A stretch of DNA of 60,037 nucleotides, filler included, from Hausera hauseri (lineage: Eukaryota): assembly GCA_046269625.1 (NCBI GenBank). It is 10 parts of 10 records of this genome, joined end to end, with 100 filler letters (N's around TTAATTAATTAA, not from the genome) between each part and the next. Parts side by side here need not be neighbours in the genome. Positions count along the whole stretch, not along the records: positions 23,439 to 29,260 come from JBJURY010183083.1; positions 29,361 to 35,259 come from JBJURY010171750.1; positions 35,360 to 41,236 come from JBJURY010175750.1; positions 41,337 to 45,839 come from JBJURY010551007.1; positions 45,940 to 49,956 come from JBJURY010816864.1; 5 more parts are not named here. One strand, given 5' to 3'. Both the position numbers and the translations under genes were made by a program. Of the stretch, positions 24,542 through 48,336 are shown piece by piece; position 1 is the stretch's first letter, and each line of letters begins with the position of its first letter. The notes under the pieces are model-generated. The model was not told the origin of the DNA. It ran no database searches and saw only the letters and a program-made list of their open reading frames with translations.

Positions 24542-24542
24542 T

Positions 24543-24560
24543 TGGTGTCCCGAGTGAGGA
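24543..24560 (+). promoter_or_regulatory. Primer binding site, resembling the complement of the elongator tRNA-Met 3' end
   Basis: TGGTGTCCCGAGTGAGGA versus TGGTGCCCCGTGTGAGGA (recalled tRNA sequence), 1 nt after the LTR CA end. Confidence 0.75.
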
Positions 24561-24691
24561 GGCACACTGGCGTCGTATTACTAACGAAATAAGCGTAAAG
24601 TACACGTTAATAACATAATCAAAACTACAGATTCGGCGAGAGGCTTATCCAGTTCTGAAACAGAAAACCTTCAGACAGAAGACGATCCCAA

Positions 24692-25480: not shown

Positions 25481-27050
25481 AACTCAAAGAAAAAGAATGA
25501 TATAATTGGTAATATATCTGATACGGATAATGAGCATGAAATTACAGACACAGAACCTGAAAACACAATAGAAAAGCTCCAACAAAAGATTAGAGCTAAG
25601 TTGAAAGGAAGTAAAACTGATATGGTAGATGATGAATATAAAGTAGCTGAATTAAGGCAGCTATATTTAGAATTAAAAGAGCAGCAAATTTGTGAAAAAA
25701 TACAAAATAATGAACGAAATTTCAATTATTGATCCAATAGGTAAGCCTAAAAAGAACCCTGCATCAGAATCAGATAATAAAATGAAAAAAGGTTGAGAGA
25801 GAAGATAAACTCTTGATGCAAGAAGAGGATTTGAAGACTCCTGAATCAGATTCATCCTCAGGTAGTGAAAAAAGTGATCAAAATGAAAAGATAGAGTAAG
25901 AAAAAGGAAAGTGAAGGAACTACAACAACAGTTCGAAACTTCACCTGTAGATTTGGATCAAGACGGTACAGAAATAGTTCGAAAAATATCAAGTTATGAC
26001 AATCAAGAATTAATTGATGGTACCAATTCAGAGAAGACCTTTCAATGTTGTTATCACCTACGACTAATCATCAACAGTTTGCTAATTTACTAGATCTACT
26101 GTTAGTATATGCTGATAACAGTCCACATCAAAATCCTGTACGACATATAATTAATCGATATGCAGGCAGAATAAGGACGGTCGGAGAAAACCCAGAAGTT
26201 ATGGTTACTCTCCAACAATGTCCTAAGGATGAAGTCGTTGGACACAGTAGCTCTATTGAAACAGGATTAATGAAATAGCTCAGCCTCGAATAGAGTTAGA
26301 GTTACGCTTTTATGGTCGAACCTTGTTGGATCACAAAACCATATACGAAATGGATATGTTGGAAAATAGATATAATCCTGTTTGTATCTTTTAAACAAAC
26401 TGAGAAAAAAATAATTGATGAAATTATTACTAACAATTGACAGAGATGCAAGAAACTGAACCACATCATGAGGTTCAAGACCGGAATTGAACCAAATATC
26501 CATATTCAAACAGATTCACACCGATAAAAGAAATTATGGTAGACCCTAAGGAACGACGAAACTTTATCAATTAAAATGCAGAAAAGCAAAGGATGATATT
26601 CGAAGATTACTAACAATTGAAGAAGAGCATGATGCAGATAATGTTTCGTCGGCAACATTACTGCAAACCTTAATAGCAAGAATGGGAAATGCATTTGTCG
26701 AGCTTAATACGAACTTACAGATACCTGATTCATTAATGCAGACTATCAGAAACGAAATAGCAAAAATTAGTGAGCAATTTGCAGATATTCCTACAGATGA
26801 GAGAATAAACGAGATACGAAATATACTCTCCAGAATGATAGGAACAGATATATCCAAAAATATCTCCTATATAAAATAATGTTGATGAACAGTATCAATC
26901 TAAATCAGAAAGAGAAAGAAACAGAAGTTGCCACAAGCGCACTGAAAGCTAATGTAGAAGGGCGGGTAAAGAGTAGAGGTGGATACAAGAATCAGACCTG
27001 TTAGACAACAAACAGAAAACCCTCCTCTACAACAAGACAGCAGTATCAAC
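25480..27050 (+). pseudogene. Uncharacterised ~1.5-kb coding tract between gag and env (coiled-coil/acidic, then globular)
   Basis: Chain of broken plus-strand ORFs (25274-25732, 25911-26278, 26682-26879); no PR/RT/RH/IN motifs. Confidence 0.5.
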
Positions 27051-27059
27051 AGTCAGATC

Positions 27060-28961
27060 TTGACCTGTCTTGGGTAATTAAAGTTCTGCCCGTTCTTTTG
27101 TTGTTCAATTTCATGCCGAAAACATTTTCAATCGTGGCTTATGATAGAAGTCAAGCGAAGGAAGGTCCTATATATTCGCTGCTATATTTAGATAAATGTC
27201 CATATATCAACCCAACATCATTCACTACAGTACCTAACAAGAATATCATGTCCATCAAGAATCGGAATTTGTGAAAACTAAAGTAAAAGAATGTTTCGTG
27301 CGAATAAATCGTTTCCACTTTATTTGCGGTTACTGGTACAGAAACTCCGCTATAGTAGAACTCATTTCGAACCCTTCCAACCACTTCCGATAAGCAAGTG
27401 AATGTGTGTAGAGGCCTTTGTAACCAAATCAATATCGAAGGTATTCGGTTGAAGGCTCAAAAAGGTAAAATTATTAGCAAAAGAATTTTTTTAGTTTGAA
27501 CAATCGACAAAACTGGTTATTGTAAAGGAGAACCATACTACATAAATGGTGAAATTTTGGATAACATAGTAGACATTGAGGATTATCAAGTTGGACTAAG
27601 AGAATATGACGTTATTTGAGTTACCATCTGGAAAAATGATGACATTCCCTGAAAGTGATTATTACAACAAAAAACGCGATACAAGTGATTCAATCATGTC
27701 ATATGAAGTCGACAAGGATGAATGCCATTTGGCCCTGTTGAAAACCGGAAAGTTTAACGAAACAAGGACGAATAAAGAAATATTAAAAAACAAAATAGAT
27801 CGAGTGTCAGATACAATCAAAATCCCAACTATAATACATTCGGCAAACCGGAGTGAAGGGATGAGGTTAAAAATAGAAAGTGATACAAAGAGATGTGAGC
27901 AAGTAGTATATCGAACAAACTACAAAGGAATATTTTTATCAACAACCGAAGTAACTAAAGCATAAAGAAAATTGATAAATTGGAGGTGAAGCAGCGTCAA
28001 TACTTTGATAAAATATATTTCATTTACCATTTTCATCAAGAAAATATCTATACCATGTACCGTGAAATAATCTTAAACGACTAGAAGTTGAGCAGAGAAA
28101 TAATCTGGAACAGAATATACTTATCAACAATACCGGATGAAATAATAAAAGATCCAGCTTAATCATCCGATGCAGAAAGAAAATTTACACGAACGATGAG
28201 ACAAAATCTTGTAACTTTCGAATGTACTAGAGTAACNNNNNNNNNNGACCGACTAGTGACTGTACAAGGGAGCTACCCGTTTGGTACAAAGAGAAGCCGC
28301 GATTTTTGCAACCGATTACCCGGATATTGTTAGATCCCATGGGAAAATCATACGTACATCAAAATTGTACATATACGATGTCGCCAGAATTTCGACTAAG
28401 CGACAACTTTTGAGTAAAATTGCACAAAATGAGCAAATTACTCCATCTCAGAGAATAAGTCTAATCAATTTGAAGACTGAACAAACATAAGCCACTTAAA
28501 GACTTAGTAAAGATGGGTGTATATTAAGGAACAAGATACGGAGATTCATAAGAGAATGATGTTCCCCAACAGATACAGAAAGTTTTAACAGAGACGGCCG
28601 TGAGGGTGTTAGTTGATCATACTGAAAAGGCTAATTGGAAAAACTTGATGGGACCAGACTACGCAAAGCAAATCACAAAGGATATATTCGCTACCGCATG
28701 GGCATGGTAAAATGGTTTGGTCAATTCAATTCTGGATGGGTGGGATTCCATTATATTCTTGCTTTTATAAAAGCAATTCTTACAATGGTAACCAAAAGAT
28801 ACGGTATAAAGCAAGCCGCTAGATGTACATGGAAAATAATCTATGCCTTGATTCCATCCATAGCTAGTTGTTTCTTAATAAAAAAGATGCTGAATGGAAC
28901 CAGAAGAATAAAAACAAATGATTCTAACGATGATGAAGATATATCTCCAACAAAAAGATAA
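27060..28961 (+). pseudogene. Envelope glycoprotein of chuvirus-G / herpes gB-like (class III fusion) type
   Basis: Internal signal peptide WVIKVLPVLLLFNF; IVAYD...YSLL...CP; ECFVRINRFHFICG; GYCKGEPY; CEQVVYRTNYKGIFLS; FECTRV..RPTSDCTRELPV; C-terminal FGQFNSGWVGFHYILAFIKAIL membrane region; many stops; 10-N gap at 28237-28246. Confidence 0.8.
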
Positions 28962-29110
28962 AAACAAATTCTCATTCAACTTCTTCCGTGAATACTAAAG
29001 ATATGGAGTTTAATCACTTCTAAAAGTAAAAAGCGGAGAAAATTACTTTCATATATTCCACAAAAAAGAGAATGAATATTCAATAGAACAGCAACAGTTC
29101 ATTACTTCCT

Positions 29111-29260
29111 ATGATTACATTGACATACATTATTCTGGTGATATGGAAAATTACGATCCGAAACACGAAATTAACGTTTTATCCAACGGCTCCAAAAGAA
29201 GCCCTAATAACTAATACACATGGTGGTAAAGTAATACCAAGAACGGTAATCTGGATTGAT
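29111..29260 (+). pseudogene. Post-env frame with a PTAP motif and possible start of a retropepsin protease
   Basis: FYPTAP...VIPRTVIWID at the contig end resembles the PxVxIxG strand preceding ALIDTGA; the catalytic motif lies beyond the end. Confidence 0.35.
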
Positions 29261-29960
29261 NNNNNNNNNNNNNNNNNNNNNNNNNNNNNNNNNNNNNNNN
29301 NNNNTTAATTAATTAANNNNNNNNNNNNNNNNNNNNNNNNNNNNNNNNNNNNNNNNNNNNACTCAAGAGAAAAAACTGCTTATGGTATCACGATTTGAAA
29401 CTATCATTGAATTCTCATCAATGGAGGACGCTGCTAAGTGGGGTTTCACATATATGGGGAATCGAATGACGTCATTAGATTCTTCGAATAATGCTCACTT
29501 GATCGATTATTCGTGTTCGAATAGCTAATTATTCGACTTGTAAGCTCGAATTAGAATACCTGATGCCATATTCCGATTCGCCATATATACTTTCCTATCC
29601 AACTCCGCTATTCGATTTATCGATTTCCGCTTCACTGAGCTTTAAATGTACATTTTGCTCAATTATAAATATTGATTTTATATCTATATAGTACATTTTT
29701 ATATTATAATTTTAATGCATCAGGAGGTTATCGAATACGAGGAATCGATTTCTGCCGTTAGATTTTTCGAATAGTTTGAACTTCGATTTTTGAACTTGAA
29801 AAATTCGAATTTCGAATTTTTGACTACAGATTCAAGTTCGGCATAGTCAATTTCCTATCTGTCTCCGCTCAATGTTGGATCGAATTTTGCTTTCTACGGC
29901 CTACAAAACCTTTGGAAAATTTGATCCATTTGCACTTTGGATCGATATTAATCGATCACT

Positions 29961-30700
29961 AATCAATAAATTTAAATTCTAACTGCACATTCATATAATA
30001 CACCGTGTTTGTGTTCGAATGCACCCGGTGCCGAGTGCTAATCATCCATAGTGGAAATGTCGGAAATTCGATATTATTGATTTTTGCACACTTGCACACG
30101 TGTTTTTGCACTGCACACCAGCAATCAAGGTGCATCTCAATGTGCTCTATCCATCTGCACTTGACCCCGATCAATTCCATCAATCCTACGCTGCACAACT
30201 GCAAAAGTATGCAAAGTGAAAAAGTGCCCTGGCAACCGTATCCAAGTGCACACCACACTCGAGTTTTGCACTGAACGATACTACATCAAGTGCTGCACCT
30301 GCCAGTATATGTGCAATATTGATATTATTGATTTAAAATTTATAGCGGAAAGGCCTACGTACCTTCTCCCTCAGTTGACGTTTTATTAAAAACCAATCAA
30401 TAAATTCAAATTCTAACTGCATATTCACATAGCCAGTCATGTGTGCTACCGATTGCACCCGGTCCAGAGTGCTAATCATCAATACTAGAAATATCGGGAA
30501 TCCAATATTATTGATTTTTGCACACTTGCACATGTGCTGCACATTTGCACTTGCACCAATCGATGCATCTCGATGTACTCTATCGAGTAGCACCTTGTCC
30601 CGCTCGATACGATCAATACTGCATTGTGCAATTATCGATTTGTGAAAAGTGCAAAAATGTGACTAGCAACGGTACCTAGGGGCACCGTTGCCTAGCACAC
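29961..30700. repeat. Diverged tandem duplication (period 434 bp), rich in TGCA/TCGA, non-coding; probably part of a DNA transposon
   Basis: AATCAATAAATT(T/C)AAATTCTAACTGCA starts at 29961 and 30395 and similarity continues for ~300 bp. Confidence 0.8.
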
Positions 30701-31049
30701 TACCGATCACTAGTGCTCCAGTGCACTATTGATTGGCACATGTGCAAAATCGATTTATCGATTTTACCCCCTCCCCGGGGTGAGGGAGAAGGTATATTTT
30801 CCTACTACTAAAGGTCAAATGGCAGAATTCGGCACGATTACGAAAATCATCGATTTTATCCAGCATTTCTTTATGATTATAAAGAAAAACCAAAAGTTCA
30901 CCATTTATTATCAAATAGAATAAACCTGCTAATTCTTTATTCAGTGTTTCGTAATTGCTGTAGTCCTTTTTCAAATCTTTCTGATCCAAAAACGCATCGA
31001 TGTCGGTAATACAAACTATGATCTCTCCAAGAATAATATGCTGAGGATC

Positions 31050-33533
31050 AAACAAACAGGAACCATGGAGCCTGTGAAGGATGTCGTTGATTAATTGTAG
31101 AGGGTAGGCATCCGTTACTGTTGTAGTGTTGAGTTGGCGGTAATCACCGCATATGCGAAAGGTACCATCTTTTTTGGAACCACATGTAGTGGTGAAGACC
31201 ACGACGATTTGGATCTTCTGATTATTTCTTATTTTTCCACTTCGAGAAACTCGGCCTCCATTGCCTGTCTGCGGCGAGGTGGCAGTGGGTGGACCTTTTG
31301 ACGTATTGGTCTTTGATGTGCTGTTTCTATATTATGGAATGTGGATTTAGGTGGTACGAATGATTTGTCCTTCTGCAACAGACGCGTGCCGAAAGACGAA
31401 ATGTATTGTTGTAGATCAAAAGGCAACAATGAAAAGTTATCCGATGGTGTCGATGCATCGTAACTGGATGTAGTTAAGGTATGAGTTATACACGAGGTGT
31501 TATGGCTAGGTGGTATTTGGTGCAGGATGTTCGTGCTGAATATAGTGTTAGCAGCAGTACTGTCAGTAATAGGTGCCACGCAGTTGGCAATATCGTATTT
31601 GAAACCGTAGTAAAAATTTCTATATAACGAATGATTATAAAAATAATTTAAATATGAAATCGTTTTCTTTAGTATTGACTTCCTGGCAGCGGTCGCCCGG
31701 GTGATCACCGAAAGGCTGATAATTTGATTAAGATTATTTCCGCACTTTAAGGAACATCGATTGCAATCTACAAGTAAATTGTAGTGGGACACAAAGTCTG
31801 AACCCAATATAGGTGTGCGTACATTGGCCACTGTAAATTTCCATGCAAATGTGTTTGGAAAGTGTGGAAGAGTGTACGTTAATTTGGTAACTCCAAAAAT
31901 TTGTAAAGGTTCACCGGACGCAGTGAACAGTTACTTTTTGAGGTGAAATTGTTTTGGATGTGTTGTGTTGGTGGCAGTAGAGAGATTGCTGCGCCGGTGA
32001 TTATAAGAAAATTAATGTTTTGCTTTGTTGGAGTGACGACTGTAGCTCTCAACGTGAGTAGAGCAAAGGAAATGTGTCGGCTATCTTTTTGCACCTTGGT
32101 GCCTTTGCTAGGACTTGCCGTGTGTCCTAGGGGCAAAATCAGTTTTTATAGTTGTTGAGTTTGGACTACTGTGCCATGTGAATTTAGTAGTGTTGCTTTT
32201 ATTGTGTGTGTTGTAGTTACAGCCAGATAGGCATTTCTGTGCTTTTGTGCCAAATTTTGAGTGATAGATGCAAACGATGTTGCTTGTATTAAAATCAGTG
32301 GAGTAAAATTTACAACCGATGCAGCATTTCTGAGAATTGTTACCAAATTTGCTATGATAATAGCAAATAGATGACCGCGCGGGCGAAGGCGACCGTCTTT
32401 GACGTTGAATAAATACATTAGGGGAAGCAGCCCTAGAAAAACCCCGTCGAAGCTGCGTTAATTTGTTTAATTTTTGGTTTGTGGTGTTGATTGTCTTTTG
32501 TAACATTTCATTTTCCGTGCGTAATTGCGCAATTTGTTGCTGCAGCATTGAATTTTGTTGTTGTTGGTCTGTTGTTAATGCTGCATAGAGAGTTCATGTT
32601 GTGTGTGAGTGCAGTACATCATATGCTTTGTCTGCCAGTTCGGCTAGCTTGTCCAGAGCCGTGGAGTTCTCGACCACGGTAAGCAAAGCTCTTATTTGAA
32701 GGAGAAGTGCATTTAAAATATAGTGACGAATAAGTTCTGGACTGTGCTCAGATGTTACGCCAAGGGTGTTAAGGTGAGACAAGAACGTGCATAAGAATTC
32801 AGAAGGCTTCTAAAGGCCCACGGAGTTATCGTTGAAGAACTTTTGAATGATGGAGTCGATTGACGGCTCAGTAAGCTTGAGAACAGCATTGTAAAGTTGA
32901 GCATATGGATCGGTGTGCTGAAGGATATCGATGATATTGGTAATTTTAGTTTCGATGGAAGCTGGTAAGTGGAAAAAGACGCTGTTATCTTTGGATAAAG
33001 AGTCGACGACGTTTTGTGATTGGAGCCAGAATTGGTGCAGTTTTAGCCACGTTTGAGTAGAGTTTTGGCTGTCGAGGAAATATTCGGTGCAGGGTGAATG
33101 AGTGAGGAGGGTGTGTTATGTAGTGGTGTTTGAAGCACTTTGTTTGGATAAGTGAATGATGGGGATCTGTGGTTTGGTTAGTTTGTCCGTGGTATCAGTT
33201 GTGGGTGATGAATCCATGACACCACGGATACTGAAGTGAATGTGAAAACAGATGTGATTTGAGGATGATTGTAGAGTTCCAGCGAGGGGTACTAGAGATC
33301 CATTTATATAAGGTAGAAATCAGAGAAGTAGAGTAAGGTAGAGATGAAATTGTGAATGGCTGCAGTGTGTGAGTAATGCTGTATGTGTTTATGTATTTAT
33401 GTATAAAAAGAAAGATGGAGTAGGGAGAGGTGATATTCCCGGGGACGTGTTGGGGGCGGCAGCTAACGGCGCCGTCCGACCCAATGGTGCAGGATGGGCG
33501 GCTGGGAACTCAGCTTCGCCGCGGTGGGCCTCA
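31050..33533 (-). mobile_element. Ty3/Gypsy retrotransposon C (same family as A): gag, PR and 5' RT only
   Basis: Gag from ATG near 33218 with KPSEFL, LDKLAELADK and two CYYH/CIYHSKFG...KC..GC knuckles; TAAAAAC-TGA plus CTAGGAC/GTCCTAG hairpin; PR FLIITGA; RT KDGTFRICGDYRQLN..DAYPL, truncated near 31050. Confidence 0.93.
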
Positions 33534-35259
33534 AATTTTGGGGTAAAAACAATAATGAAAATTTTAGTTGTTTGAATCAACTAAAGCAAATTCTCATTAA
33601 ACTTACCAACAGGAAGACGTTCAGCATCCAAAAACACATGATATCCACGGAGTCGTAAATGCACCATCAATAGACTGGCTAACTGATATCCGTTACTCCG
33701 TCGATATAAGATAAATACATCTATATTCTTTATAATTGGTTCATTGTACATAGAATCATCAGCATGATTAGAAACAACAAAATTATCAATTTGTGCACTG
33801 GTGGATGACAATTGACGTGGCAATTCTTTCATATAATCGACATAATCTATTGGTTGAGTAGTAACAGCAACCTTAGAGCCCTTCATAAACTTCATTTTAT
33901 AATCTTCTACTGCTTTCAGAATTCGCACTCGGTGGACAGAATTCGTTACACAGCAATCTTTGGCCAGTGAGTTATCAGTTATGTTCGAAAGAAACTTTTG
34001 ATCCACGCCCGCTTTGATAGATGAAGATGTGTAATGACAGAAATCTGATCCAATATGCATTTTGAGCCAGTCTAGACACCGGTGGAATCACATGCTTCGT
34101 ACGTTATAATATTTTTCAATTTCATTATCTCCCTCAGTAATCGAATTCGGGTAATTTTATTTTTTATTTGTATATGATTTTCCAAAATCTCTTCCGTCAT
34201 CGTTAACAAAATATCGACATCTATACGGAGAGATTCAAATAATTCATAAAGATCGTCAAATTCGATCATTTTGAGCCCATGACAAACATCTTCTACTTTC
34301 CAAATAGGAACAAGATGTGAAAAGCTGAAAGAAATATTTTCATTGAGAATTTTTAATGCTTGGCAGGCAAATTGAGCAGCTATTCGAAAAGTACTAGAGG
34401 CGACTTTTCTAAGACAATCAGTAGCACCGGTATCGCTAAATAGCTGAGTTTTTCCTTGCCTATGCTTGATTCGGGCTTCCATTACAAAATGGAATGAAGC
34501 CAATGAAACAGCTTCAATACTGCCACTTTTAAGAATTGGTAAAAGCTGCTGCAACCACTTGGATGATCGACCTTGAAAATGCGACTTTTCAGTTTTTGCG
34601 AAATTATGTGACGAATGATTTCGTAAAAACAAAAAAACTAGTTCTAATGTTCCTGATAAATAAACCATATGAGCTAGTTCTCTATGGGCTGATAGGACTA
34701 CAATAGCCATACAGGCACAATACTTTATAATAACGTCTTCATTAAAAGCTAACGGAAACAACCAATCTGAAACTTTATAATGACCCATTGTCATCTGGAT
34801 GTAAACATTTCCGAAAAGACCCAAATTAACTAACGCAAATGCAACGTGCATAGGAGTTGCGTTATCGGTCGACCTGCATGAATAGATGAAACTTTTCAGA
34901 CCATCACATTGAACAATGAGTCTATTTGTTTTTTGTGATGTTTCACCAAACCTTCGAGAATGGAAATAAATGCTCGATTTAAATCTTCATTAGGCAATTC
35001 AAATGCAGAAAACTGTGAAATGTCCAATTGGTATATCAATTCCAAAACGTCATCATACAGACATTTAGTTTAACTTCATAATTTCGATTTCGTTCTTTGC
35101 TATCATCGAAATCAGATTCACAGAAATAATTTGATGTTGTAATCTCAATAGGTATAGATATTTCTCGTGCAGTATTTTCGAGAAAAACAGCAGTTTCCGG
35201 TTTGTAACTGCTTTGGCTGAAAATCTCACCCTTTTCACAGTCGGATAACTCACTAGCAC
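33534..35259 (-). pseudogene. SARM1: SARM1 homologue (ARM-SAM-SAM-TIR), intronless, disabled, TIR truncated
   Basis: WLFPLAF, LQQLLPIL, AFHFVMEA-like motif, VPIWKVEDV (SAM1), [13 protein letters not shown] (SAM2), [44 protein letters not shown]; in-frame stops at 34072 and 33581 and upstream frameshifts. Confidence 0.95.
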
Positions 35260-35359
35260 NNNNNNNNNNNNNNNNNNNNNNNNNNNNNNNNNNNNNNNNN
35301 NNNTTAATTAATTAANNNNNNNNNNNNNNNNNNNNNNNNNNNNNNNNNNNNNNNNNNNN

Positions 35360-38300
35360 GTTAAAAGATTGAGTAACTATTCGACTCCAAAATTCTTATT
35401 TGTCATTAAAAATAACGTTCTGAAAGAATATCAACATGGTATCAACAAGATCGGTTGAAATTATACAACATAGTTCTTAAAAACATCCATTTCACCATTT
35501 TGGGTTTCAGAACTAGAATTATTGTTCGTCAAAGAATTCGAATTAAAAAATACGTCGTAAGCAAAATAAATTTTATTCCATCATCAAAAATTAATTACGT
35601 CTTTCTTTTCCCTATTATAAAACACGCCCCTTACAAGAAAGTAAATTATTAAAAATAATCTTCTTGATCGAGTTACATTCGGATGATATTTCGAGTAGAA
35701 GTAACTCGTTGAATTGTACCCTATTACCGATAACTGATAGTATAAAATGTAAAGACACCATAAACAGGATAGAAAATTCATTATAATTCCCGTAGTGATC
35801 CACGGCTGCATCCTGTAACTACAAACTGCATATTCAAAGGGATTTGCACCAGACACTTGTCCGCAGCTGATTGACAAATACCTAATGCTAATATTTATAA
35901 ACAAGGCCATCAGAGAAGCACTGTGAAAAAGGAGAAAAATAAAATTCCTCATATTATTTCGTCCAATGCACTTCATCAAAAACAAACAATGATGATCCAT
36001 ATCAACTATGCAATCTTCACAGAGTTTGCAATGCTTCACTTGTTTCGGTCGTGGATAGACTTCACAAAACGTACAAAATCTATCATAAGGAATAGCATTC
36101 ATCGACTTAATACCCGACTTCAACATTCGATGGAATTCATTGAAAAAATCCCGGAAATTCGAATATTCGATTTCTGAAATTTTCAGACGACCCGGATCCA
36201 CAATAACAATTCGTAAATAACACAAGAAAAATAATGGCAATAGACAATAGATGAGAAGCAATTGCCACTCAGTTCCGTTCATTTTTGGATAAATTTTTAT
36301 GCAAAACACAATCAAATCGTGAGTAAATCCTGCAAAATAAGCCCCGGCGAAAATCGGGTTTTGATCGATAACAACGACATTCACCCGATGGCCCTGCGAT
36401 ATGACAAATACAGACATGGCAATGGAACACACCGCAAAAATAATGTAGTCGTGTTGTACAAAATAGTGCGACAGGAAAATGGTGAAGAGGAAAATAGAAA
36501 ACGGTAAGAAAAACAAAACGAATCGATACATTTTGAAATTGATCCGCAGCTGAGCCAGAGACATTATCTGAAGAACGAAGAAAAGCATTGTGAAATGCCA
36601 ATTTTGTGATTTATAATCATCGGGTAATTTGCTGTAGGCATCCGCGGGAGTTTTGTTCTCCGAATTTTTGGCAAAAACAACTGTCGAATCCTCTTGAGTC
36701 AATAACAAGTCAACATCGAACATGGGCATTCGTTCAACGTTGTGGAATACCAACAATGGTACGCATTGTAGCTGGCGATTTTCAATTGCCAAATGGAGAC
36801 AGGTATTTCTATTTTGTCGAGTTCTATCCAAAATATTCGTCCGACTTTTTCGTAACAAAAATCGAATACAGTCGATTTTACCGTGTACACACGCCAGATG
36901 CAGACAAGTCTGACCGAAATTGTCTTTGGAAACAAAAGATAGTTCGGTAAAACTCTCGATCCATAATAATGCTGGAACGCTACCACTGATCACAGCACAA
37001 TGAGCCAAATTTTGACCCTAAAATGTAAAATACATATTCAACATGTTTGACCCAAAACAGGTTCAACTTCATTTTAATAGACACCCTTAGTATCGAATCG
37101 ATGAGTGTAGTAATGTTGGATTGAAAAGCATGCACAAGAAAAATATTCGGGGTCGAACCAACCCATACCAATTAAGAGGAATCTTTAAAATAAAACTAAG
37201 TTAAAGATATAAACTTTTACAGAAAAAATCGAGCATTGTGTCAATATTCATAACTTTTAATTCGCTCGGAATGTTTTCGACATTTAGTATACTTTACTTC
37301 AAAGGTCTTTATTCTTTATTTCCATACGTAGTTTATAATCGCAATGGAAGTTGTTTAAATTCACAGATAGTTTCCACCACATGCAATAATATTTGTAAGA
37401 TCCTGACGAAGGTGCAGGAATTCTTTGTTCAAAGTGGAGCGTTGTAGATTTTGCAAAGAATTCGAGAAAATTATACATTTCATATTTCGTATGTAATGTT
37501 TTATTTCTTGTAGCCTCTATATGCCGAAATGATGGGAAACGTTTATAAGTGTATTGACGCAAAATCATTTGAATTACAATTTCTTTCGATTTTTCTAGGA
37601 TTTTTGGTAAGTATCGGAAGCTGAAGCTTTCTTTCGATACAGTTCTAATAGATTTGTAATTTCTTTCGTAATAATAGACAGAAACGTGCATTAATATAAT
37701 GATATTCTGATTTACAGAAAGTTTATATTTGACATGCTATATTTCGATTTACAATATTCTTTACCATCAATAAATTAATATTAATAAAGTACTACATAAC
37801 ATTTTGTCAACATATTTGGATAATGTAGTTACATAATATTCAAATTCAAATAAATAGAATCAATGCAAAAGCAAACCATTGAAAATTCCATTGAAAAATA
37901 AATTGTAATTTTGAAAAACAAAGCTAAGATTTTTGAATTAATTTGGTGAACATAATATGCTTGCCAAATTCGGCATTCCGCTTACATGACAGTTGTTGCT
38001 CTATATATCGATACAAGCTTATTCTAACAGTGGAATTTTACCATACGGGCTTATAAATTAATGTCGACAAACGTGGTAACTTTTTATATCGACGTCGATT
38101 GAAAATTTTACTCGATTTTTATGAAGCAAAACTGACTTTTTGAAATCACATTATTATAAAAGGTTCGGTATATGTTTCCCAAATGAAATTTTAATTCATC
38201 CGTTATGCTTAACCTCGAATCCCTTAAGATTCGATTAACCCCGAATATAACATGAAACGTATAATATTAGTTTCACAATCTTCAGTTTTAGTATCAATTT

Positions 38301-41236
38301 TCTTCAAGTTTAATTTACAACTTTCTCTAAATTTTATTACTTGTTTGAAAGATTCAAAGCACTTATAATAGAGCACATAAAATTTTGATTTATCTTCTTT
38401 AATTAATATGTTCTACGATTTCTCAACAAGTTCCTTTATTATGTTTTGTATAATTTTACCTCCCTTAGATCTCTTCCGTTTTATTAGCGGATTCCTACTA
38501 ATCCCTTTTGAATATTTCCCAATTATTCGTTTGGTAAATTTTGAAATTTTACTGACTAAATTTATTGTTAAAATGACTCACGAACTTGTTGAAGTATAAT
38601 TTTTCACAAGTATTAATCTTCCAAACATATTTGAAAAATGTCATGATTTCACAGACTTATTTTATCAAGCATACAACTGTTTGAATCCATGACGACATGC
38701 GTAGAAAAAAAATAGAAAAACCGAACTATAATACTATTCATATTACTTCCATCTTTTTTAATTTTATCTCGTTCCTTTCCTTCTTAGTTTTGTTACTTTC
38801 GTTTTTTTTATGTAAATAAAATATCTACAAACTTTTTCAACGATAAGATTTCATTATAATATGTAAATTCATAAATTTACCATACATTATAACTCTTGAA
38901 GTTTGATCGGATCCTTTTATAGTTTTTTCGATTGTTGTATATTTCAGAAACAGAAAATTCTGACTGTTAGTATTTCCAGAACTGAGACATTCTCTCGTTT
39001 ATCACTCACATTTCCTTCAGTAATAATCAAATTCGTTGACTGCAATACAATTAAATATATCTGACTTCAAAGAAACCAAATTGGACGAAATTTTGTATGT
39101 TTTTCTCCAACCAATTTTGTCGGAATTTCTCCATAAATTCAAACGAAGAACTATATGTGTTGTCTTTAGAGTCTACTACATCCGCACGGATATAACTTTT
39201 TATTGACAAAGCCTTTTTTCTTGAAATAATCCCATTTCTTGAACTCTTCTGTTTCAAGACTTTTTGGATCATTATTTCACATTTCGAATTTATAATTAAT
39301 TGAATTGAATTCAATCATTATCATTGAATTCATTATCACGCTGCCATGCGTAATAAAGAATTCAATCAGCATTTCCTTGTTAATGGGCCGACACCCGATT
39401 CTCAGCCGGGTGGGAAGAATTCAGAGGAGTGAGGAAACCCCGAAATAACTCAAGACAATGTCTAAAATGTGTCATTTCATATTCATAAAATAAACTTCAT
39501 CACATTTTGTATTAATTTGTGTTCTGCTATTTTAATTTTACCACAACTCTGTACGCACTTGTTGTTTGCTGTTCTCAAATTTGTATGATTATATAAACAT
39601 TTATGCTTTGTTGTTTTACCCATTTCTTTTTAATATTACAATGATTTGTAACGGGTTAAGCATTGAATCCTGACTATGGATTCTATAAGTTTTTCCTTCT
39701 ATAACTCATCGTGCATTACTTCGTCATCTTTATTGAAATCCAACTGTAAGATAAGTCTATCCTATAACCGATGAATCTTTCATTAAATACTCGAACAATT
39801 ATTCGTTTAGTTGACATTCCTTCGGAATCAATTCTTCGAACATTCATTTAAAGTTGTGATCTAGCCAACTTACACAAGTATCATCTGGTAGTACATTGAC
39901 AGTTATATTTACTAGATTTTGGAATATGAATAAACAGTACAACTACATTTATCAAACTACATGAATCAAGCTACATTCATCTTGTTAATAAGAACTATTA
40001 TAACTCCTCTTCCATGGGTCTATAACTATGTTATTCTTCGACATCAAATTAATTTCATATTAAATATTTACTTCATTTGTTCGCTCGATATTCTACTGAA
40101 GAAAGTATCTATTATTTGAAAACATCAGAACTATGACGACACCTCTAATGGATAAAATCATCACTGAGGTGGGTAAACAGACGATTACTCTGGAATAGTA
40201 ACTGCCTTATTACGGTTGCAGCTAAATATTTTCTTTTCCTAAGCATTCCATCAGTTCTTTTATCATCCTCACGTTCCCATTTGCTTCTTGAATATAATTT
40301 GCCCCCTTGTATTAATGCATTAATAGCAACTGTTTCCCTTTTTCCGGTTCTCCGAATGTCGACAAGAATCATGTGACATTTACGTATCAGTCACAACATA
40401 TTTTCTATATTTCATACATATTCATACATGCATTTTTATAGTCATTCGTATTTCACATTCCCAACTATAGAGACAACATCTTAAACATAAAAACTATATG
40501 TACAATATATATACAATTTTAGCATACACACTCATTCAAATATATTCAATACATTATACACAAACTGTATTTGTCCTAACATTTCCAATTGGTATTGGCC
40601 GGATCACCCAACTGTGCTGTCGGTATACAACAGAGACAACACTTTAAATACACTAAAGTGTGAGTTTTGAACCAAGCAGTAGATTTCTTGTCGATAGAAG
40701 GTATGTCAACACAAAATGATAGCACCGCAGTGGCGTGCCAAAGATTTGCCAACAGAGGATATATCAGAGACGATGAAAAAATATTGAAATCTAATTTCAC
40801 GGGATTTTAACTCCCCTTCGGCACGTCAGCGCAGCGCCGCACAATGCTTCACTACTATTCTAAATAGCAGAATTGAACAGAATAGAGTAAACATGTATCC
40901 GATCCATAATACTGACTGTAGTAATGCTTCAACCATGCAAGAATATACTGTAACTGTTGTGCATGAAATTCGAATTCTACCTAACAATTAGTCACAAAGC
41001 TGAAAATCCCTGAAATTTTTTTGTTCTGTATGATATTAAAATAATATTAGATTTATAATTATTAAGTTACAAATACCATTTACATAATAGAAATTAACCA
41101 ATGTTTTAGTTTGGACATCAAAAAACCAAATTTAAAAATGAGATGAAATAACTTTATTTGTTAAAAGATTGAGTAACTATTCGACTCCAAAATTCTTATT
41201 TGTCATTAAAAATAACGTTCTGAAAGAATATCAACA
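35360..41236. repeat. Contig 6 has an exact 77-bp terminal direct repeat (35360-35436 = 41160-41236): a 5,800-bp circular or tandem unit
   Basis: Identical GTTAAAAGATTGAG...GAATATCAACA at both ends. Confidence 0.95.
35584..37017 (-). CDS. Ankyrin-repeat DHHC palmitoyl acyltransferase (HIP14/Akr1, ZDHHC13/17-like); last large exon, 5' exon(s) upstream
   Basis: Ankyrin repeats (GQTCLHLAC, NTCLHLAI); several TM helices; DPG; intact Cys-rich domain CTFC..RP...KHCKLCEDCIVDMDHHCLFLMKCIG.NN; open 474-aa frame; splice acceptor TTTTACATTTTAG before 37017; AATAAA just after the stop. Confidence 0.93.
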   Translation of the reverse strand, partial: GQNLAHCAVISGSVPALLWIESFTELSFVSKDNFGQTCLHLACVHGKIDCIRFLLRKSRTNILDRTRQNRNTCLHLAIENRQLQCVPLLVFHNVERMPMFDVDLLLTQEDSTVVFAKNSENKTPADAYSKLPDDYKSQNWHFTMLFFVLQIMSLAQLRINFKMYRFVLFFLPFSIFLFTIFLSHYFVQHDYIIFAVCSIAMSVFVISQGHRVNVVVIDQNPIFAGAYFAGFTHDLIVFCIKIYPKMNGTEWQLLLIYCLLPLFFLCYLRIVIVDPGRLKISEIEYSNFRDFFNEFHRMLKSGIKSMNAIPYDRFCTFCEVYPRPKQVKHCKLCEDCIVDMDHHCLFLMKCIGRNNMRNFIFLLFHSASLMALFINISIRYLSISCGQVSGANPFEYAVCSYRMQPWITTGIIMNFLSCLWCLYILYYQLSVIGYNSTSYFYSKYHPNVTRSRRLFLIIYFLVRGVFYNREKKDVINF

Positions 41237-41336
41237 NNNNNNNNNNNNNNNNNNNNNNNNNNNNNNNNNNNNNNNNNNNNTTAATTAATTAANNNNNNNN
41301 NNNNNNNNNNNNNNNNNNNNNNNNNNNNNNNNNNNN

Positions 41337-41861
41337 GGTCGCCAAAACAAATTCTTTATGAAGCAAGGCAACAAACGCTGAATAAATGTACTACCGGATA
41401 TTATTCATGCATACAATCATTCGACACCTCTTGGCATCAATGGATTACGGCCGGTTGACATAAACGAAGATTTGGACATGTGTTGTTATCAAAACCGAAC
41501 ACAACAATATGCAATTAAACGCCCAAAATATAAAATCGGCGCTTACATACGTATTTCGAAAATAAGTACGACTTCATTCATTAAGAATATCAATCAGAAC
41601 TGGAGCAATGAGGTTTTCCGCATTTCGACAATCAACACAAAACAAACAACTGCCATGTACGTTTTAGAGGATGAAAACGATGAGGAAATACGCAGTAAAT
41701 TCTACAAACAGGAACTGCAGATACTGCCCGAGAAACGCGATATATATCGTATTCAGGAAATTTTACGTTCAGGCTGTAAAAGTTCGAATAAACAATACCT
41801 CGTCAAGTGGCACGTATATACTACACCGAGTTGGATTTTTGCACCGCAGATTGAGCGATGA
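41337..41861 (+). pseudogene. Maverick retroviral-like integrase C-terminus with chromodomain
   Basis: LPDIIHAYN..H, KYKIG..IRISK, F.K...NWS.EVF, FYKQELQ, YLVKW...SWI. Confidence 0.92.
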
Positions 41862-43214
41862 ACATTTATTTGATACTTGATAGTAACAGATTATCAGAAC
41901 ATTAAAACAACAATAACAATACCGCTGAACGGTTTACCATGGCGTTGGACCAGCCGCTCGACATATGCCAGGATCCTTGGAAGTGGCTTTGGCGCAATTC
42001 ACGTTTGCATTTTCACCAATAACAATACGTGAGAACAGTGGAATATACTATACCCTAGTAGGACAATCTCCTGCATCTAGTCCTTTGCAGTTAGTACGAG
42101 ACTCTAATGGAACATTTCATGTTCACAATTACAAGCGGCAATATTTTTCGTTTTATATTTTTCATTTAAACTCTCAATTGGTGTAAAAACACAAACATCC
42201 GATGGAATTGCAATTTAAATCACTAGCCCACGCTAAGGCATGGGGTTTTCAATCTGTCAGTGGGCGCTCGAAAGGTCTACAGCTCAGTGGGCAGAGTATA
42301 ATTAGTGAAAAATTGAACTTTTTTACTGCGAAAACCACCGATATTACAGTGAACTGGCAAAAGACTGAATCATTCATTTACTCACATGTAAAAGGAATTG
42401 GTTTTCTTATGGAAACCGAAACAGAAATGTGTGCAAACATCAAGGCAGTAGCTAAATTGGCTCTCAAGACATTTGAATTAAACTATGATGGTCGTATTTC
42501 GTTTACACTATACGATAATGTTACAAGGACTTGTCAAGGGGTTGTCAATTAGTCAATGTACACTCAAAACGTCTACGGCTAGATGGACATGTTATAATTG
42601 GTGAAAAATTGGACCTTTCATCCTATGCGGAATCCGATATTATAATAAAGTGGACTAAGTCAGAATCAGTCTTCCGTTCATATATTATACCACACGATTT
42701 ATTAATGGAAACAGAACTGCATTTATGTGAGTACGTCAAGAAAACGGCTACATTAGCCGTAAAGACATGTAAAATAAACGCAGATGGTCATATTTCGATT
42801 ACACGCCATGACAATGTTACATATTTTGCCTTTGATTAATTATTGGCTCGGAATTTGGGTTTTTCAAAACGCGAATTATATCAAAACATTGTTGGACAAT
42901 ACATTGTTGCCAAATACAAACCAAAACTCTATGGAGCAATTCATAGAATCAACATTTTAACGGACTTAACCGAATCCGTACTCGTTGGTGGAGAACGTAA
43001 ACAACGACTGGCTTCTATTGAACTAGATTCTGACACGTACAAAACATCGGGTGAAACTGTTCGCATTAATATGCTCAGACTCATGTACTTATCATTGTCT
43101 CACAATATTGCACACAATATTTCCATGTATATGCTTGATGAATTTTTGGAACCCATTAAATTTCTGTTTGGATCAACGAGACATTTCACGTTACATCTTT
43201 GTCGTCGTCACTAA
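41858..43214 (+). pseudogene. Minor capsid (penton-like) protein 1 with internal domain duplication
   Basis: ATGA overlap with the integrase stop; MNIYLILDSN, EVALAQF, LARNLGF, TDL.ESVLVG, MYL, TLHL.RR. Confidence 0.8.
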
Positions 43215-43257
43215 CTGCGTCATCACTATCATCATCATTATCACCATCATCGAGATC

Positions 43258-44344
43258 ATGGGTATTTACATGGTGTTGCCGAGCAACAGTTGTCCGACTA
43301 CTCATCCGAACAAATTTAGCCTGTGAATACGTTGTAGATCGGAACAATCCTTTCAATTTATCTGGAAAATGGGAGGTTGCACTGACGGAATTTAACTTTC
43401 CCTACGCATCAGTGGCATTGAAAGGTAGTGTGATAATAACGTACAACAACACTGTTACTGAAACTAAAATGCATTCTTGTCCTCTGACACTTGCTAACAA
43501 TAAAATAACAGTTGGAGAATCGGCCATTTGTACGACCAAAGCAAATTACGGTATATTCGGCAAAATTGGTGTTTTTATTTTAGATCAAAACTTACATTTT
43601 ATGGCAAATTTTGAATTTACTGTTACGTTTGAGTCCTCTGAGATGGCGTAAAAATTTGGATTCAAAAATACAAAGTACAAAGGTACAAATATTAAAAGTG
43701 AAAACACAGTTGCTCCAAGATTAAGTCCCGTATATTACCAGACAACGGAAAAATTTACCTATACAGCATAAAGGGTGTCAACATCATACGTATCAATTGC
43801 AGACAATATTTATTGCGAATCTGTAGCACATCTCTGTCAACACTTTTCTTCAAATCAAAAGTACAAGGAGATATTTAAAGTTTTCGAGTCAGATGCAAAT
43901 GGGTACATTAAATTTGAACTCGCTAAGGATATTGTTGAAATTTCATTAGAAAAAGCTTTGGCCATGATATTGGGTTTTGAATAACAGCGGTTTGAAGCAT
44001 CGACGGCGGCGGCACATGTTGCAATACTTAAACCCAAACTGAAAACGGGACTAAGTCAAATGTATATTTGCGTGAACGTCACCGAACCGATTTTGGTCGG
44101 TGGAGTACGTGTACGGCTACGCCATGCAATTTATCCGGAAAGCAGCAAGTATACTGTTGGCGACAATGTTACTGTCAAGCTCGATAATCCAATGTACCTA
44201 CCTGTGGCATGTACATCTATAAATAATGCTGAAGTGAATATCCGATGTCTCGCGGGCTAAATTATTGAATTTCTGTACGGAACCACTACCAGTCTAACTC
44301 TTCATTTCCGTCGAATTCTACAACAGCAACAACAACATGATTGA
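43258..44344 (+). pseudogene. Minor capsid (penton-like) protein 2
   Basis: MGIYMVLPSN, GKWEVALTEF, LAMILGF, MYIC..TEPILVG, NPMYLPV, LTLHFRR. Confidence 0.85.
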
Positions 44345-44668
44345 TTGTGAAATCGTTTTCATTTACAGTAAACTCCAGCAAGGCGGTGAACTGCCGTATT
44401 TCGTTGGTAAACAGTACGGCTCTGGAAGTTTGCATACATTCGCACGTTTAGCGTTTCCGGTGTTGAAGCGTATTGGAGCCGTGGCAGCAAAAACAGCGCA
44501 GAACGTACTACATGAAAACAAATCGATTTTACCATCATTGAAGAAACACGCCTTGTCAGAAAAATCGTCAAAAAACAATTCGCTGGCAGTGACTTGAGAA
44601 AACGCCATAGAGCATCACCGAGCTCATCAACTATAAACAAACGTCGTCGTCATACGATTTTCATTTGA
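44337..44668 (+). pseudogene. Small basic core-like virion protein
   Basis: QQGGELPYFVGKQYGSG...FARLAFPVLK; Gly-flanked putative maturation-protease sites; basic tail ending ..RRRHTIF. Confidence 0.7.
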
Positions 44669-44687
44669 TTGATTAATTCATAGACAA

Positions 44688-45839
44688 ATGGAATATGCAA
44701 AATCTGAATTGTGCATATTCGACAAAGCGGCGCCACAAGTTGTTATTGGAAATGCGGAATTTAAAGAAATCTACCCCGTTGATTGGGTTTGAACGGTCGA
44801 CAACATTGACATTCAATTCAACATTATGGCATCGGCAATGAATACCTGGATTGTAACGATAGGCTACTCTGTGTAAAAGTCATTGTTAAGAATTCGTCAA
44901 CAGTTTGCGCTGCAACAGACACTATCACACCGGCCAATTACATTTTCCTGACACTGTTCCAGGAGGCTTTACTGACTCTGAACAGCGTCAAAATCGAAGA
45001 CAACACCAGTCTATACAGTGTCAAAGCACTCATTGAAACGGCTCTGAATTACATCGCAGACACGAAAACGATTCATTTTATAAAAACCATCGGATACAAT
45101 GCCACAGCGGCAAACCGTCAGGCAAGGGTGGCAGAATCAAAAGCGCTTACAATATGTGGACCGCTGTACTTTGACTTTTTTGATCAGCCGAAATACCTAC
45201 TGCCTGGTGTTAAAGCCATGATTGGGCTCAAACGCAGCGACAATATTTTTTGTTTAAAAACTGCCGTTGCACAGCTTAAACCCATACTGAAAATTACCGA
45301 GGCACGATTATACGTACGTCGAGTAAAGGTAAAACCATCTGTGCTCATGGGACATCGATTCGGCTTGGAAACGCAAAATGCATGCCACCCATTACAACGC
45401 ACAGAACTCTTGTTTTACACCATACCAAAAGGTTCAACTACGTTTCACAAAGATGCACTGTTTGGCAACATGTGATTGACGATATTTGTGCTCGATACAT
45501 TTCAAAGGACTGTTCAACAAACGGGCAGTTATACCACCAATTCGGAAACGTTTACCCATAGCAATGTGAATTACACCAGTTTGGGTCGGAATGCGGATTT
45601 GTTGAGACGTACAGACAAGACTTTGAGTCTAATGATTATACTTGAACATATATGCAATCTATCGTGCGCAACATAGGTTTGATGAACAAAAATATCAACA
45701 ATGGCATATCGATGGATTTGTTTAAGTCCACATATCCATTCTTCACCTTTATCCTAGCTGCAGATTATGACGTTGAACAGACTCAACTACCTCAGCAGGG
45801 AAACCTACGACTGGAGGTTCACTTTGCTAAAGCGTTGGA
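44688..45839 (+). pseudogene. Major capsid protein (double jelly-roll), cut by contig end
   Basis: MEYAKSELCIF..Q..I...EIYP, PLYFDFFDQPKYLLPGV, ARLYVRRVKV, GNLRLEVHFAKAL. Confidence 0.9.
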
Positions 45840-45939
45840 NNNNNNNNNNNNNNNNNNNNNNNNNNNNNNNNNNNNNNNNNNNNTTAATTAATTAANNNNN
45901 NNNNNNNNNNNNNNNNNNNNNNNNNNNNNNNNNNNNNNN

Positions 45940-46800
45940 TGGGTTCTGGCTCAGTTCTTGATTTCCAGCTATGTAATCTTGTCTAATTCATAGTCTCTTC
46001 AAAGCTTTTTGCGCTCGGAATCCGGTAACAATGTATCCATATAAGCAATGGCTTATTTCTTCTTGGATCTCCAAAAGATCCTTTTCTTTTTCCAGATGTA
46101 TTTTCGTTATTACTGTAACGTCGGGGAAAGTATTTTTTATCCTAGCTCGAGGTGCTATTATTTTATTTATAATCTCTTATCCATTAGTATTTCTAATTGA
46201 GACCTCAATCGGAACATACCATCCGTCGTCCTTTTCTCCATAGTTTACGGCTAATATTCGGGTATTTCGGCCATCTGGGACTAATCTATAAGATTCCCCA
46301 TTTTGCTCTATTTTATCTTCCGATGGTTTCTGTACATATAATAACCGTGGTAGTGGCTTCATTACTTCTGTTCGCCACGTCATCTCGATCATGATTTTGG
46401 TTGGAAGGTCCGCGATCCTGAATTCCGGAGCATAATTCATGAGGCTGTAGCAACATAGCTCATAAGTGCTAAATTTCCACTGCTGCCCTTTTTGCGTACT
46501 CCAGGACTGTCCTACGATCCTATACTGAATTTCTCCATCAGCGAAATATATGTACAATTGCTGATGTGTCGGCTCATATGGAATTAAATCTCTTAAAAGG
46601 TATGCTCGTGCATCCTTTGGATTTCGCATGGCATATAATCGAACTAGTCAATTCTCTTCTAGACCTCATTTTAATCCATTTGGTATTTTACTCTCTTGGT
46701 TGTTCTCTATATAGTTCTGGGTTTTCAGGTTTTCTCCAATTTATCGGTACAGAATTTTGGACAGTGATTTGAGAACATTGACGTGCTGCTGTAGGAAATC
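45940..46800 (-). pseudogene. Second unknown ORF downstream of the membrane protein in element D
   Basis: 150-aa ORF 46177-46629 continues past a stop to the contig end; an upstream frame carries RSRR; acceptor-like TTTATTTTTATTTTAG near 46862. Confidence 0.5.
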
Positions 46801-46956
46801 ATCTATATCGAAATTGCAACTGATTTCTGAATTTTTCGCCTTCTCGGTCATACTTACTCTGCTAAAATAAAAATAAAGGTTAATCCTGAGACAAATCATC
46901 GTTTTGAAGCAAAACATTTTCTCTGTCTGATGATAAAATAACCCGATCTGTAGTTG

Positions 46957-48336
46957 TTATGTTATGCTATAATAAGGTCCGTCTTGGTGCCCTTCTACCC
47001 TTTTATTTCCCCTCCGATTTTTACAGCGCTTATTACAATTTTTGGAAACTAGAAAAATCATCGCCGTTAATATGATAAGAATGAAAATTGACAAACTTAA
47101 TATAGCTATAGTCGGTAAATTGTTTGTCTCGATGGATCCCCTTGTGGTCAAAGCATTTTGCATACTCAGATCTCTATACTGCATTACTTTGATCTGGTCA
47201 TCTAGAGTCCGCACTGTATAAGTTTTAGGGTGCTTACCCTTTGCGATGATTGTGACTATATAATCATGTTGCGGCCGTAATGAACTTCATTCGGTTTCCT
47301 GACTATTCCTTTTCAGGGTCACGACTTGGTTTGTGTGCAAGGTGCGACATTCAATTTTGACGTCTTAATTTAACGTCTCTTCAGCGAAAAATAGAATTCT
47401 ATAGCTTTTTGCCAAAATCTTAAACGGTATGCTTCCTAGTTCTTTCTCTAGTATTTCATCCGAAGTTACAATCGTAGTAGTCAGAGTTGTGCTTGGAACT
47501 GTAGATGGTCTTCTTGTAGTCGTTGGGAAAGGAAGCTCCCATATTCCATTTTCCGAACGATATCCCCGTAAATAGGTACTTTGCTCTCCGGGGTACGTAT
47601 TATACAAATCGAGTTGCAACTAATACTCCTGTCCTAGTTGCAGTACGCAGCACACAGTAGGTCGTCGTCTGGCCAAATAATAATATTTCGGAATATGAAC
47701 TGAGACGTTTAATGGTATAAATCGGACAGAAATTTGTCTGTCTCTAGGCAGTTCCACCTTAGTTTTAATTCGAATACATTGGTTTATTAAGTCCTTTGAA
47801 ATCCCAATAATGTTATAGTCTAAGAGTCTTTTAAATGGGTCAGTGTTTCGAATTATTTAGTCCGTCTTGGCTCGATTTGCTTCCTTCGGTTGGGGCATTC
47901 TTATTGAGAATTCTGTAATTATAGAAGTTTGAGCTCCAAACTGATTACAATAAAACATGTGAAATCTGTACCCGTAGGCTTTTCCAAAATCAAAATCACA
48001 ACATCTTTTGTGATATCCGTACGGAAAATCGCATGTTCTCATTGTGGATCTAGTTACAAATATTATTTAAAATTTCACATAACTCTGAATGGTTTCACTT
48101 GCTTCGAACCACGCGCATGGTTTGCTCCAATCCATATCGCGTACTTTAAGTGACTGTAGGTTTTGAATATCTCTTCGTCTTGCCGCATATTGTAATTTTT
48201 CGTCTTGATTTATCTCTTTTACCTTCGGTATATACGAAACGATTAATAATAAGACAAAGACTATTTGCACATATGATATCGGTCTAGTCACTATCGATGA
48301 CGTTTTCTTTTCCTTATTGGTTTCTCTCAAACGCAA
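46957..48336 (-). pseudogene. Type-I membrane protein in frame with the integrase tail: signal peptide, Cys-containing ectodomain, Thr-rich stalk, FN3-like domain, TM helix, short tail
   Basis: ORFs 48067-48336, 47857-48042, 47365-47619 and 46957-47214 share one frame; SYVQIVFVLLLIVS; PTTTRRPSTVPSTTLTTT; LRPQHDYIVTIIAKG...RTL; IAILSLSIFILIILTAMIFLV; YYSI. Confidence 0.75.

Follow-up and report, generated by a model that had tools for sequence, protein, structure and literature searches.

The window analysed here is a stretch of 60,037 nucleotides from Hausera hauseri (assembly GCA_046269625.1), made up of 10 unlinked contigs separated by N spacers. Two of these, contig 4 and contig 8, are decayed, unlinked pieces of high-copy Ty3/gypsy elements, the first with gag and a gene for a gB-type fusion glycoprotein and the second with a gene for a further membrane protein following the integrase in frame. 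An earlier, sequence-only reading of the window had taken the two as possible halves of one retroelement with two envelope (env) glycoproteins, and it is this proposal that is followed up below. The features of contig 4 are listed here (LTR, long terminal repeat; PBS, primer-binding site).

23439-29260, plus strand: contig 4, with gag, linker and gB-type fusogen
24540..24554, plus strand: LTR-end-like CA, then a TGG PBS-like stretch (PBS-like site at 24543), assigned on sequence
24695..25480, plus strand: gag with zinc knuckle, broken by frameshift (PF03732, E 5.6e-6; matches the Gag of P0122)
25481..27067, plus strand: linker 'X', broken; probably ubiquitin-like and Bcl-2-like, going by weak Pfam matches of relatives
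27068..27124, plus strand: internal signal peptide 1, upstream of gB, leading into the A[YF]DC start common to gB relatives
27125..28960, plus strand: gB-type (class III, Monjiviricetes-like) fusion glycoprotein (PF24664, E 3.8e-5 at 28635-28958)
28961..29260, plus strand: spacer, possibly entering the protease, with no profile match

Stops, frameshifts and a gap of 10 N's interrupt the gB gene of contig 4, and tblastn matches to the gB of intact relatives extend over the whole length of this gene. A fragment of this env retrieved P0122 (65% identity), a natural open reading frame (ORF) of 1130 amino acids which tracks contig 4 throughout, in the order Gag, zinc knuckle (zf-CCHC in Pfam), weak ubiquitin-like and Bcl-2-like matches, signal and gB (PF24664, E 6.3e-19). 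In the linker, the ubiquitin and Bcl-2 matches of P0122 (E 0.031 and 0.055), like those of P0257 (ubiquitin, E 0.0046) and P0245 (Bcl-2, E 0.00096), fall below the curated cut-offs, and alignment A2 gave no sequence match in the PDB. A gB tree gave the contig 4 family, represented by P0122, no resolved place among its relatives, and its sub-groups were those of the integrase trees described below.

From gag to the end of gB contig 4 measures 4.3 kb, and it stops ∼105 codons past gB, the distance from gB to the protease motif ranging from 32 to 125 codons in 10 of 13 relatives. The sequence-only reading had placed a possible protease start at this end; a profile of the pre-protease stretch built from 13 relatives matched nothing there. 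At the other end, depth in run X1 was 3-31 in four bins over 23634-24413 and then 21,821 in the bin 24414-24608, leaving only ∼130 bases of high-copy sequence before the PBS-like site, so that the LTR is putative only. No repeat pair that could represent LTRs was found within contig 4 or contig 8, neither of which extends to a 3′ end, and the PBS-like stretch is absent from the eLife element table.

Contig 8 carries the following features.

45940-49956, minus strand: contig 8, with RNase H-integrase, then an in-frame membrane gene
48737..49915, minus strand: C-terminal half of RNase H, bridge and integrase (H2C2 and core), open for 393 codons (PF17917, PF17921, PF00665)
48330..48736, minus strand: integrase C-terminal (GPY) region, frameshifted, ending in YNLR in frame with the membrane gene
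48220..48276, minus strand: internal signal peptide 2
47110..48219, minus strand: ectodomain of ∼370 amino acids with a Cys-rich N-part, predicted FN3-like repeats and a linker; five in-frame stops
from ∼47856, minus strand: possible first FN3-like repeat
from 47526, minus strand: Ser/Thr-rich linker of the ectodomain
47433 to ∼47215, minus strand: putative second FN3-like repeat, from a repeat-profile match
46960..47109, minus strand: transmembrane anchor (47109-47041) and short basic tail
45991..46647, minus strand: further open frames of 156 and 62 codons, high-copy like the rest of contig 8

As the sequence-only reading had stated, contig 8 begins inside RNase H (PF17917, profile positions 56-105) and has no gene in common with contig 4, nor was any DNA match between the two obtained by blastn or tblastx. 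RNase H precedes the integrase in contig 8 and reverse transcriptase (RT) is found in neither contig; the full Ty3/gypsy pol order of protease, RT, RNase H and integrase is present in P0392, P0247, P0251 and P0263. The closest RNase H-integrase matches of contig 8 are P0123 and P0392 (37.6%), and the Y.LR motif preceding signal peptide 2 recurs in P0392, P0247, P0251 and P0393. The ectodomain carries one N-glycosylation sequon. At 48312, just upstream of signal peptide 2, 11 X1 contigs diverge (median of 102 loose bases), and thus the linker between integrase and signal differs between copies. Contig 8 was found in run X1 only, and no RNA run was listed for it. The frames at 45991..46647 had no match in Pfam or among the fetched proteins, the 156-codon frame had none in the Atlas either, and its structural model was unusable (pLDDT 34).

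Intact elements with both genes were obtained by searching 1.84 billion representatives with P0122, which returned long polyproteins, and by a cluster look-up which added P0392 and P0393. Among the proteins run through Pfam (16 of the 150 listed matches, picked for length, plus four look-up proteins), gB and integrase occur together in six ORFs, namely P0247, P0251, P0258, P0263, P0392 and P0393. P0258 stops within the integrase, and each of the five that extend beyond it has a second signal-like segment after the integrase, followed in four (P0392, P0393, P0247 and P0251) by one or two FN3-like repeats with the pattern C..L.P...Y/H and by a transmembrane segment. The most complete is P0392, whose 3735 codons (3735 amino acids, with no X in the sequence) hold the whole series of Gag, zinc knuckle, linker, signal 1, gB, transmembrane segment, protease(s), RT, RNase H, integrase, signal 2, ectodomain, transmembrane segment and tail. 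Pfam recognized in it the Ty3 capsid, zf-CCHC, PF24664 (E 1.2e-91), proteases, RT, RNase H and integrase, and hydrophobic segments lie past the integrase at residues 3322 and 3644. The part of this order from gB to the tail is repeated in P0393, P0247 and P0251. The sequence-only reading had inferred a layout with a fusogen ahead of pol and a further surface protein behind it, and these four, with gB, pol and a second membrane protein, bear that order out; we regard the layout as virtually certain to be real in this lineage.

P0123, 99.3% identical to P0392, ends as contig 8 does, but intact. Tails of at least 60 amino acids past the integrase were present in 45 of 239 integrase-matching proteins, with a strongly hydrophobic segment in one of the 45 (P0123), the weaker signal of P0002 having fallen below that hydrophobicity cut-off. 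Among P0392, P0393, P0247 and P0251 the second ectodomain is far more divergent (17-24% identity) than gB (39-65%) or RNase H-integrase (51-74%).

Several of these relatives show peculiarities of their own. In P0263 the integrase is followed by an extended linker rich in Ser and Arg, a signal, an ectodomain which is Cys-rich and differs in appearance from the FN3-like ones, and two more hydrophobic segments; the post-integrase slot may be exchangeable. Protease-like domains are multiplied in P0393 (up to seven stretches) and P0247, with further copies past the integrase in both, and P0393 also has ankyrin and C2H2 matches. P0351 has Gag, a signal at residue 578 and a transmembrane segment at 1076 with no PF24664 match, then pol and no tail; the protein encoded ahead of pol may be an envelope of another type. 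P0251 was deposited under a Flavobacteriaceae metagenome-assembled genome and is probably misbinned animal DNA. Scans for related loci were empty in viral contigs, in metagenomes with P0122 and in prokaryote genomes with P0251, while the 10 loci obtained from metagenomes with P0123 all matched gypsy pol, and none of them (0/10) had a gB or FN3-like match.

In order to assign a fold to the second protein, the P0123 ectodomain was modelled alone from its single sequence (mean pLDDT 50). With this model Foldseek matched tandem FN3 (22 matches at E ≤ 0.001, of which the 20 listed are FN3-bearing by title), and VIA-align gave a Z of 9.1 against FN3 (root mean square deviation 2.6, 82 aligned residues). 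The structural matches from both programs include IFNAR, IFNGR, NCAM and neogenin; the Atlas offered no usable match for this ectodomain. We therefore predict with fair confidence that the P0123 ectodomain is FN3-like. For the window itself, a profile of six natural repeats matched the second repeat of contig 8 with 9.4 bits (i-E 0.0034), a score which ranked first among 60 frames and exceeded 20/20 shuffles; a five-repeat profile gave a borderline 6.8 bits, equalled by one of 20 shuffles. On its position, motif and weak profile match the window ectodomain is probably FN3-like as well.

One half of this arrangement, gag-env(gB)-pol, is already published. Chary and Hayashi (PMC13524379) describe GAG-ENV-POL errantiviruses with a gB-type env in Nematoda, Bryozoa and Platyhelminthes, including a flatworm group C1a (Smed_errantivirus_1-6) in which gag is followed by an HSV/gB-type env and this in turn by a Ty3/gypsy pol, and consider the transmission mechanism of most errantiviruses elusive. 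Contig 4, P0122 and six Schmidtea rows share, by eye, the gB domain I-II motifs and eight cysteines, and in alignment A2 the domain I-II cysteines are invariant or nearly so. In contrast, three ORFs with no second membrane protein are described for the group C1a elements, and the main text contains none of the words 'fibronectin', 'FN3' and 'immunoglobulin' (PMC13524379). LTR and PBS were not found within 3 kb of the ORF ends for eight of nine flatworm elements (PMC13524379), and the 3′ ends of these elements may thus be longer than was examined.

The planarian element Burro/GYPSM1 encodes a polyprotein of Gag, CCHC knuckles, ubiquitin/SUMO-like and BCL2-like domains, env, and protease-RT-RNase H-integrase, with the env in frame and related to mononegavirus fusogens (PMC6431247). 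The domain order given there is that of P0122, and the contig 4 linker probably holds ubiquitin-like and Bcl-2-like domains in the manner of Burro; together with the gB-type gag-env-pol elements of PMC13524379, this makes the gag-env(gB) half one of a known kind. Burro differs in exceeding 30 kb and carrying MATH, BIR and ankyrin domains (PMC6431247), whereas contig 4 is far more compact and neither its frames nor P0122 gave a Pfam match to any of these three. No post-integrase membrane or FN3 protein is named for Burro in that review (PMC6431247). Rotifer LTR elements likewise have an extra gene after pol, encoding a membrane protein in some families, but there the captured ORF3 is separate and replaces env, while here the gene is in frame with the integrase and accompanies a full fusogen (PMC5408684). 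Going by titles, abstract openings and term counts, none of the papers searched pointed to an FN3 protein, or to any further membrane protein, in an element of this sort.

The gag-env order was seen in contig 4 and P0122, and env followed by pol only in the relatives; the link between contigs 4 and 8 was examined by abundance, phylogeny, composition and signal peptides. Thousands of X1 contigs (7,387 and 5,968), mostly less than 95% alike, together cover contigs 4 and 8 end to end, and none of these short contigs spans either. Given so many divergent copies, it is unlikely that both pieces come from one insertion. Median X1 bin depth, counted by hand, was ∼3,600 over contig 4 and ∼5,300 over contig 8, values which give no copy number; X1 may be the source sample. 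The coverage comparison proposed earlier showed a similar order for both pieces, but more contigs per kb for contig 8. In an integrase tree of 23 rows, which left out P0160, P0180 and redundant rows, contig 8 grouped with the six gB-pol ORFs and P0002 at 97/97, and in one of 20 rows with P0160 and P0180 restored it again grouped with the gB-pol ORFs and P0002, at 90/98. The element of contig 8 very probably had a gB gene. Both contigs have an A-rich sense strand, which the gypsy elements of contigs 3 and 5 do not have (3-mer distance 0.104 vs 0.198-0.220), and both lie at matching distance from intact relatives (gB 27-31%, by hand; RNase H-integrase 32-38%). That they belong to one family is moderately probable.

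The two signal peptides, at 27068-27124 (plus strand) and 48276-48220 (minus strand), align without gaps, as had been proposed with the second placed near 48279; 7/19 residues are identical and 13/19 positive (BLOSUM62 score 33). Of the 43,172 six-frame 19-mers in the window, each of the two is matched best by the other, with runners-up at 30 and 25, and shuffles keeping the hydrophobic pattern reached 33 in 0.09% of 20,000 trials, a figure which overstates the case because the pair was chosen post hoc. Among 133 natural pairs of a gB signal with a post-integrase signal, the contig 4/8 pair came first (35, mean 15), with the unrelated P0256 reaching 30. The likeness is thus real, but as a general sign of linkage it was rejected, since in five natural two-signal elements an element's own two peptides score only 11-17; it amounts to a mild hint and no rule. 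Also rejected was K.SS..TR as a motif shared by the stretches preceding the two peptides: contig 4 has K.SS.TR 10 residues ahead of its peptide and contig 8 K.SS..TR two residues ahead, so that the spacing differs, and P0122 has no such motif.

Taken together, we hold it likely, with a probability of about 0.55, that contigs 4 and 8 represent one family of a gag-env-pol lineage having a gB fusogen and, after the integrase, a second type I membrane protein which would be FN3-like and likely serve attachment. A number of observations count against this. No contig or read connects the two pieces, between which 1.8 kb or more of protease-RT is missing; the layout with a separate fusogen and second protein, as first proposed, is seen in single natural ORFs. 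Contig 8 is a long branch; an unfinished 46-row tree, which carries a long-branch warning, set it with P0160 outside the gB clade, and with FastTree the env-less P0133 fell within that clade. The fold evidence comes from one relative and a low-confidence model, the P0123 and window ectodomains do not match significantly (40/300 shuffles as high), and Pfam fn3 had no match in the window fragments or the relatives. Leave-one-out profiles found P0393 and P0247 as top matches and P0251 second, and missed P0392, and the post-integrase ectodomain of P0263 looks different from the rest.

In the mechanism proposed, one polyprotein chain would enter the endoplasmic reticulum (ER) twice, with Gag and Pol remaining cytosolic and both ectodomains becoming lumenal, and signal peptidase together with the element's protease would release the parts, among them two type I membrane proteins. 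Made along with Gag, both would arrive together at the budding membrane. There gB would fuse membranes, as follows from the gB family, and the FN3-like protein, which evolves fast, would determine which cells are entered by binding a molecule on the host-cell surface. Its synthesis together with Gag and gB, its stalk and anchor, its adhesion-type fold and its fast divergence favour attachment as the main role, for which the chances may be put just short of even. Herpesviruses combine gB with gD and gH-gL, and paramyxoviruses F with H, HN or G, in each case a fusogen with a separate type I or type II receptor binder. These, however, are encoded by separate genes and have Ig-like or beta-propeller folds, whereas here a single polyprotein would supply a predicted FN3-like partner. 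Only tentatively, then, do we propose an invertebrate Ty3/gypsy lineage with two-component entry, in which a class III fusogen and a fast-evolving FN3 receptor-binder, captured separately, are made as one polyprotein crossing the ER twice.

The second protein could instead act on the host, as a cytokine-receptor-like decoy, an aid to cell-to-cell adhesion or a block to superinfection, a possibility that merits serious weight while remaining doubtful; a host-modulating or decoy role appears nearly as likely as attachment. Class III fusogens such as GP64 both bind and fuse alone. Paired FN3 domains are the fold seen in adhesion molecules and in cytokine receptors, as the structural matches named above illustrate, and the polyprotein probably has other host-control domains, the Bcl-2-like and ubiquitin-like ones also present in Burro. 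Moreover, only one env is described for most errantiviruses (PMC13524379). The synthesis of the second protein in one chain with Gag and gB, with a stalk and an anchor, would on the other hand fit display on particles, and its fast divergence is compatible with both roles.

As to the pedigree of the two contigs, it is unlikely, though within reach, that they come from two sister families with the same lineage and layout, each having its own gB and second membrane protein. S. mediterranea alone has six gB-type families, five of them pairwise 32-64% where shown (PMC13524379), nothing links the two contigs, the observed/expected CpG ratio is 1.11 in contig 8 vs 0.80 in contig 4, and the X1 contigs are denser on contig 8. 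A single family is favoured instead by the first rank of the signal-peptide pair, by the matching distances of both pieces from intact relatives and by abundances of the same order. Far less probable is a derivation from two unrelated elements, namely a gag-pol element with an FN3-like gene in the env slot for contig 8 and one ending after pol for contig 4. The placement of contig 8 in the 46-row tree and the nearness of the env-less P0133 would suit it, as would the rotifer elements, some of which have post-pol membrane ORFs and no fusogen (PMC5408684). Both finished trees nevertheless group contig 8 with gB elements, gB is present in 5/5 fetched tail-bearing ORFs that reach far enough upstream and a tail in 5/5 gB-pol ORFs running well past the integrase, and P0392 further weakens this explanation. 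It is very improbable that the FN3-like gene is a piece of host DNA picked up and carried along without use, for although it is broken in the contig 8 copy and similarity among relatives is very low, it is open, in frame and has kept signal and anchor in four elements whose integrases are 26-49% apart, and is present across many X1 copies.

For the choice and entry of cells by env-bearing retrotransposons outside Drosophila, the second membrane protein of the proposed gB lineage brings a concrete candidate for tropism. If the attachment role holds, retroelements are able to equip a captured gB-type fusogen with a partner and split binding from fusion in the herpesvirus fashion, which bears on the origin of multi-protein entry systems. 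Should the protein act on the host instead, the literature searched still gave no other case of an FN3-like membrane protein that follows the integrase and is retained in divergent elements.

The remainder of the window contains eukaryotic host genes (SAM-domain, ankyrin-DHHC and RasGEF frames) and other repeats, among which are the following features.

33581-34986, minus strand: two SAM domains in a long unbroken host frame, presumably SARM1-like, beside a gypsy remnant
35587-37017, minus strand: ankyrin-DHHC host frame, 477 codons, unbroken
54534-54860, minus strand: dUTPase fragment (E 5.7e-9)

The helix-turn-helix frame at 56707-57312 (minus strand) has what we take to be a mariner-like look. 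Several frames of 41337-45839 resemble, by eye, what we assume to be a Polinton/Maverick remnant, and none of the three tested (0/3) had a Pfam match. Decayed C-rich gypsy elements at 16577-20560 and 30726-33115 are mutually related (tblastx, E 4e-102) and differ in composition from contigs 4 and 8. Contig 9 (50057-54130) is a degenerate tandem array, 75-80% alike between offsets. It and contig 6 (35360-41236) each have identical ends of 77 bases, which suggests an assembler overlap.

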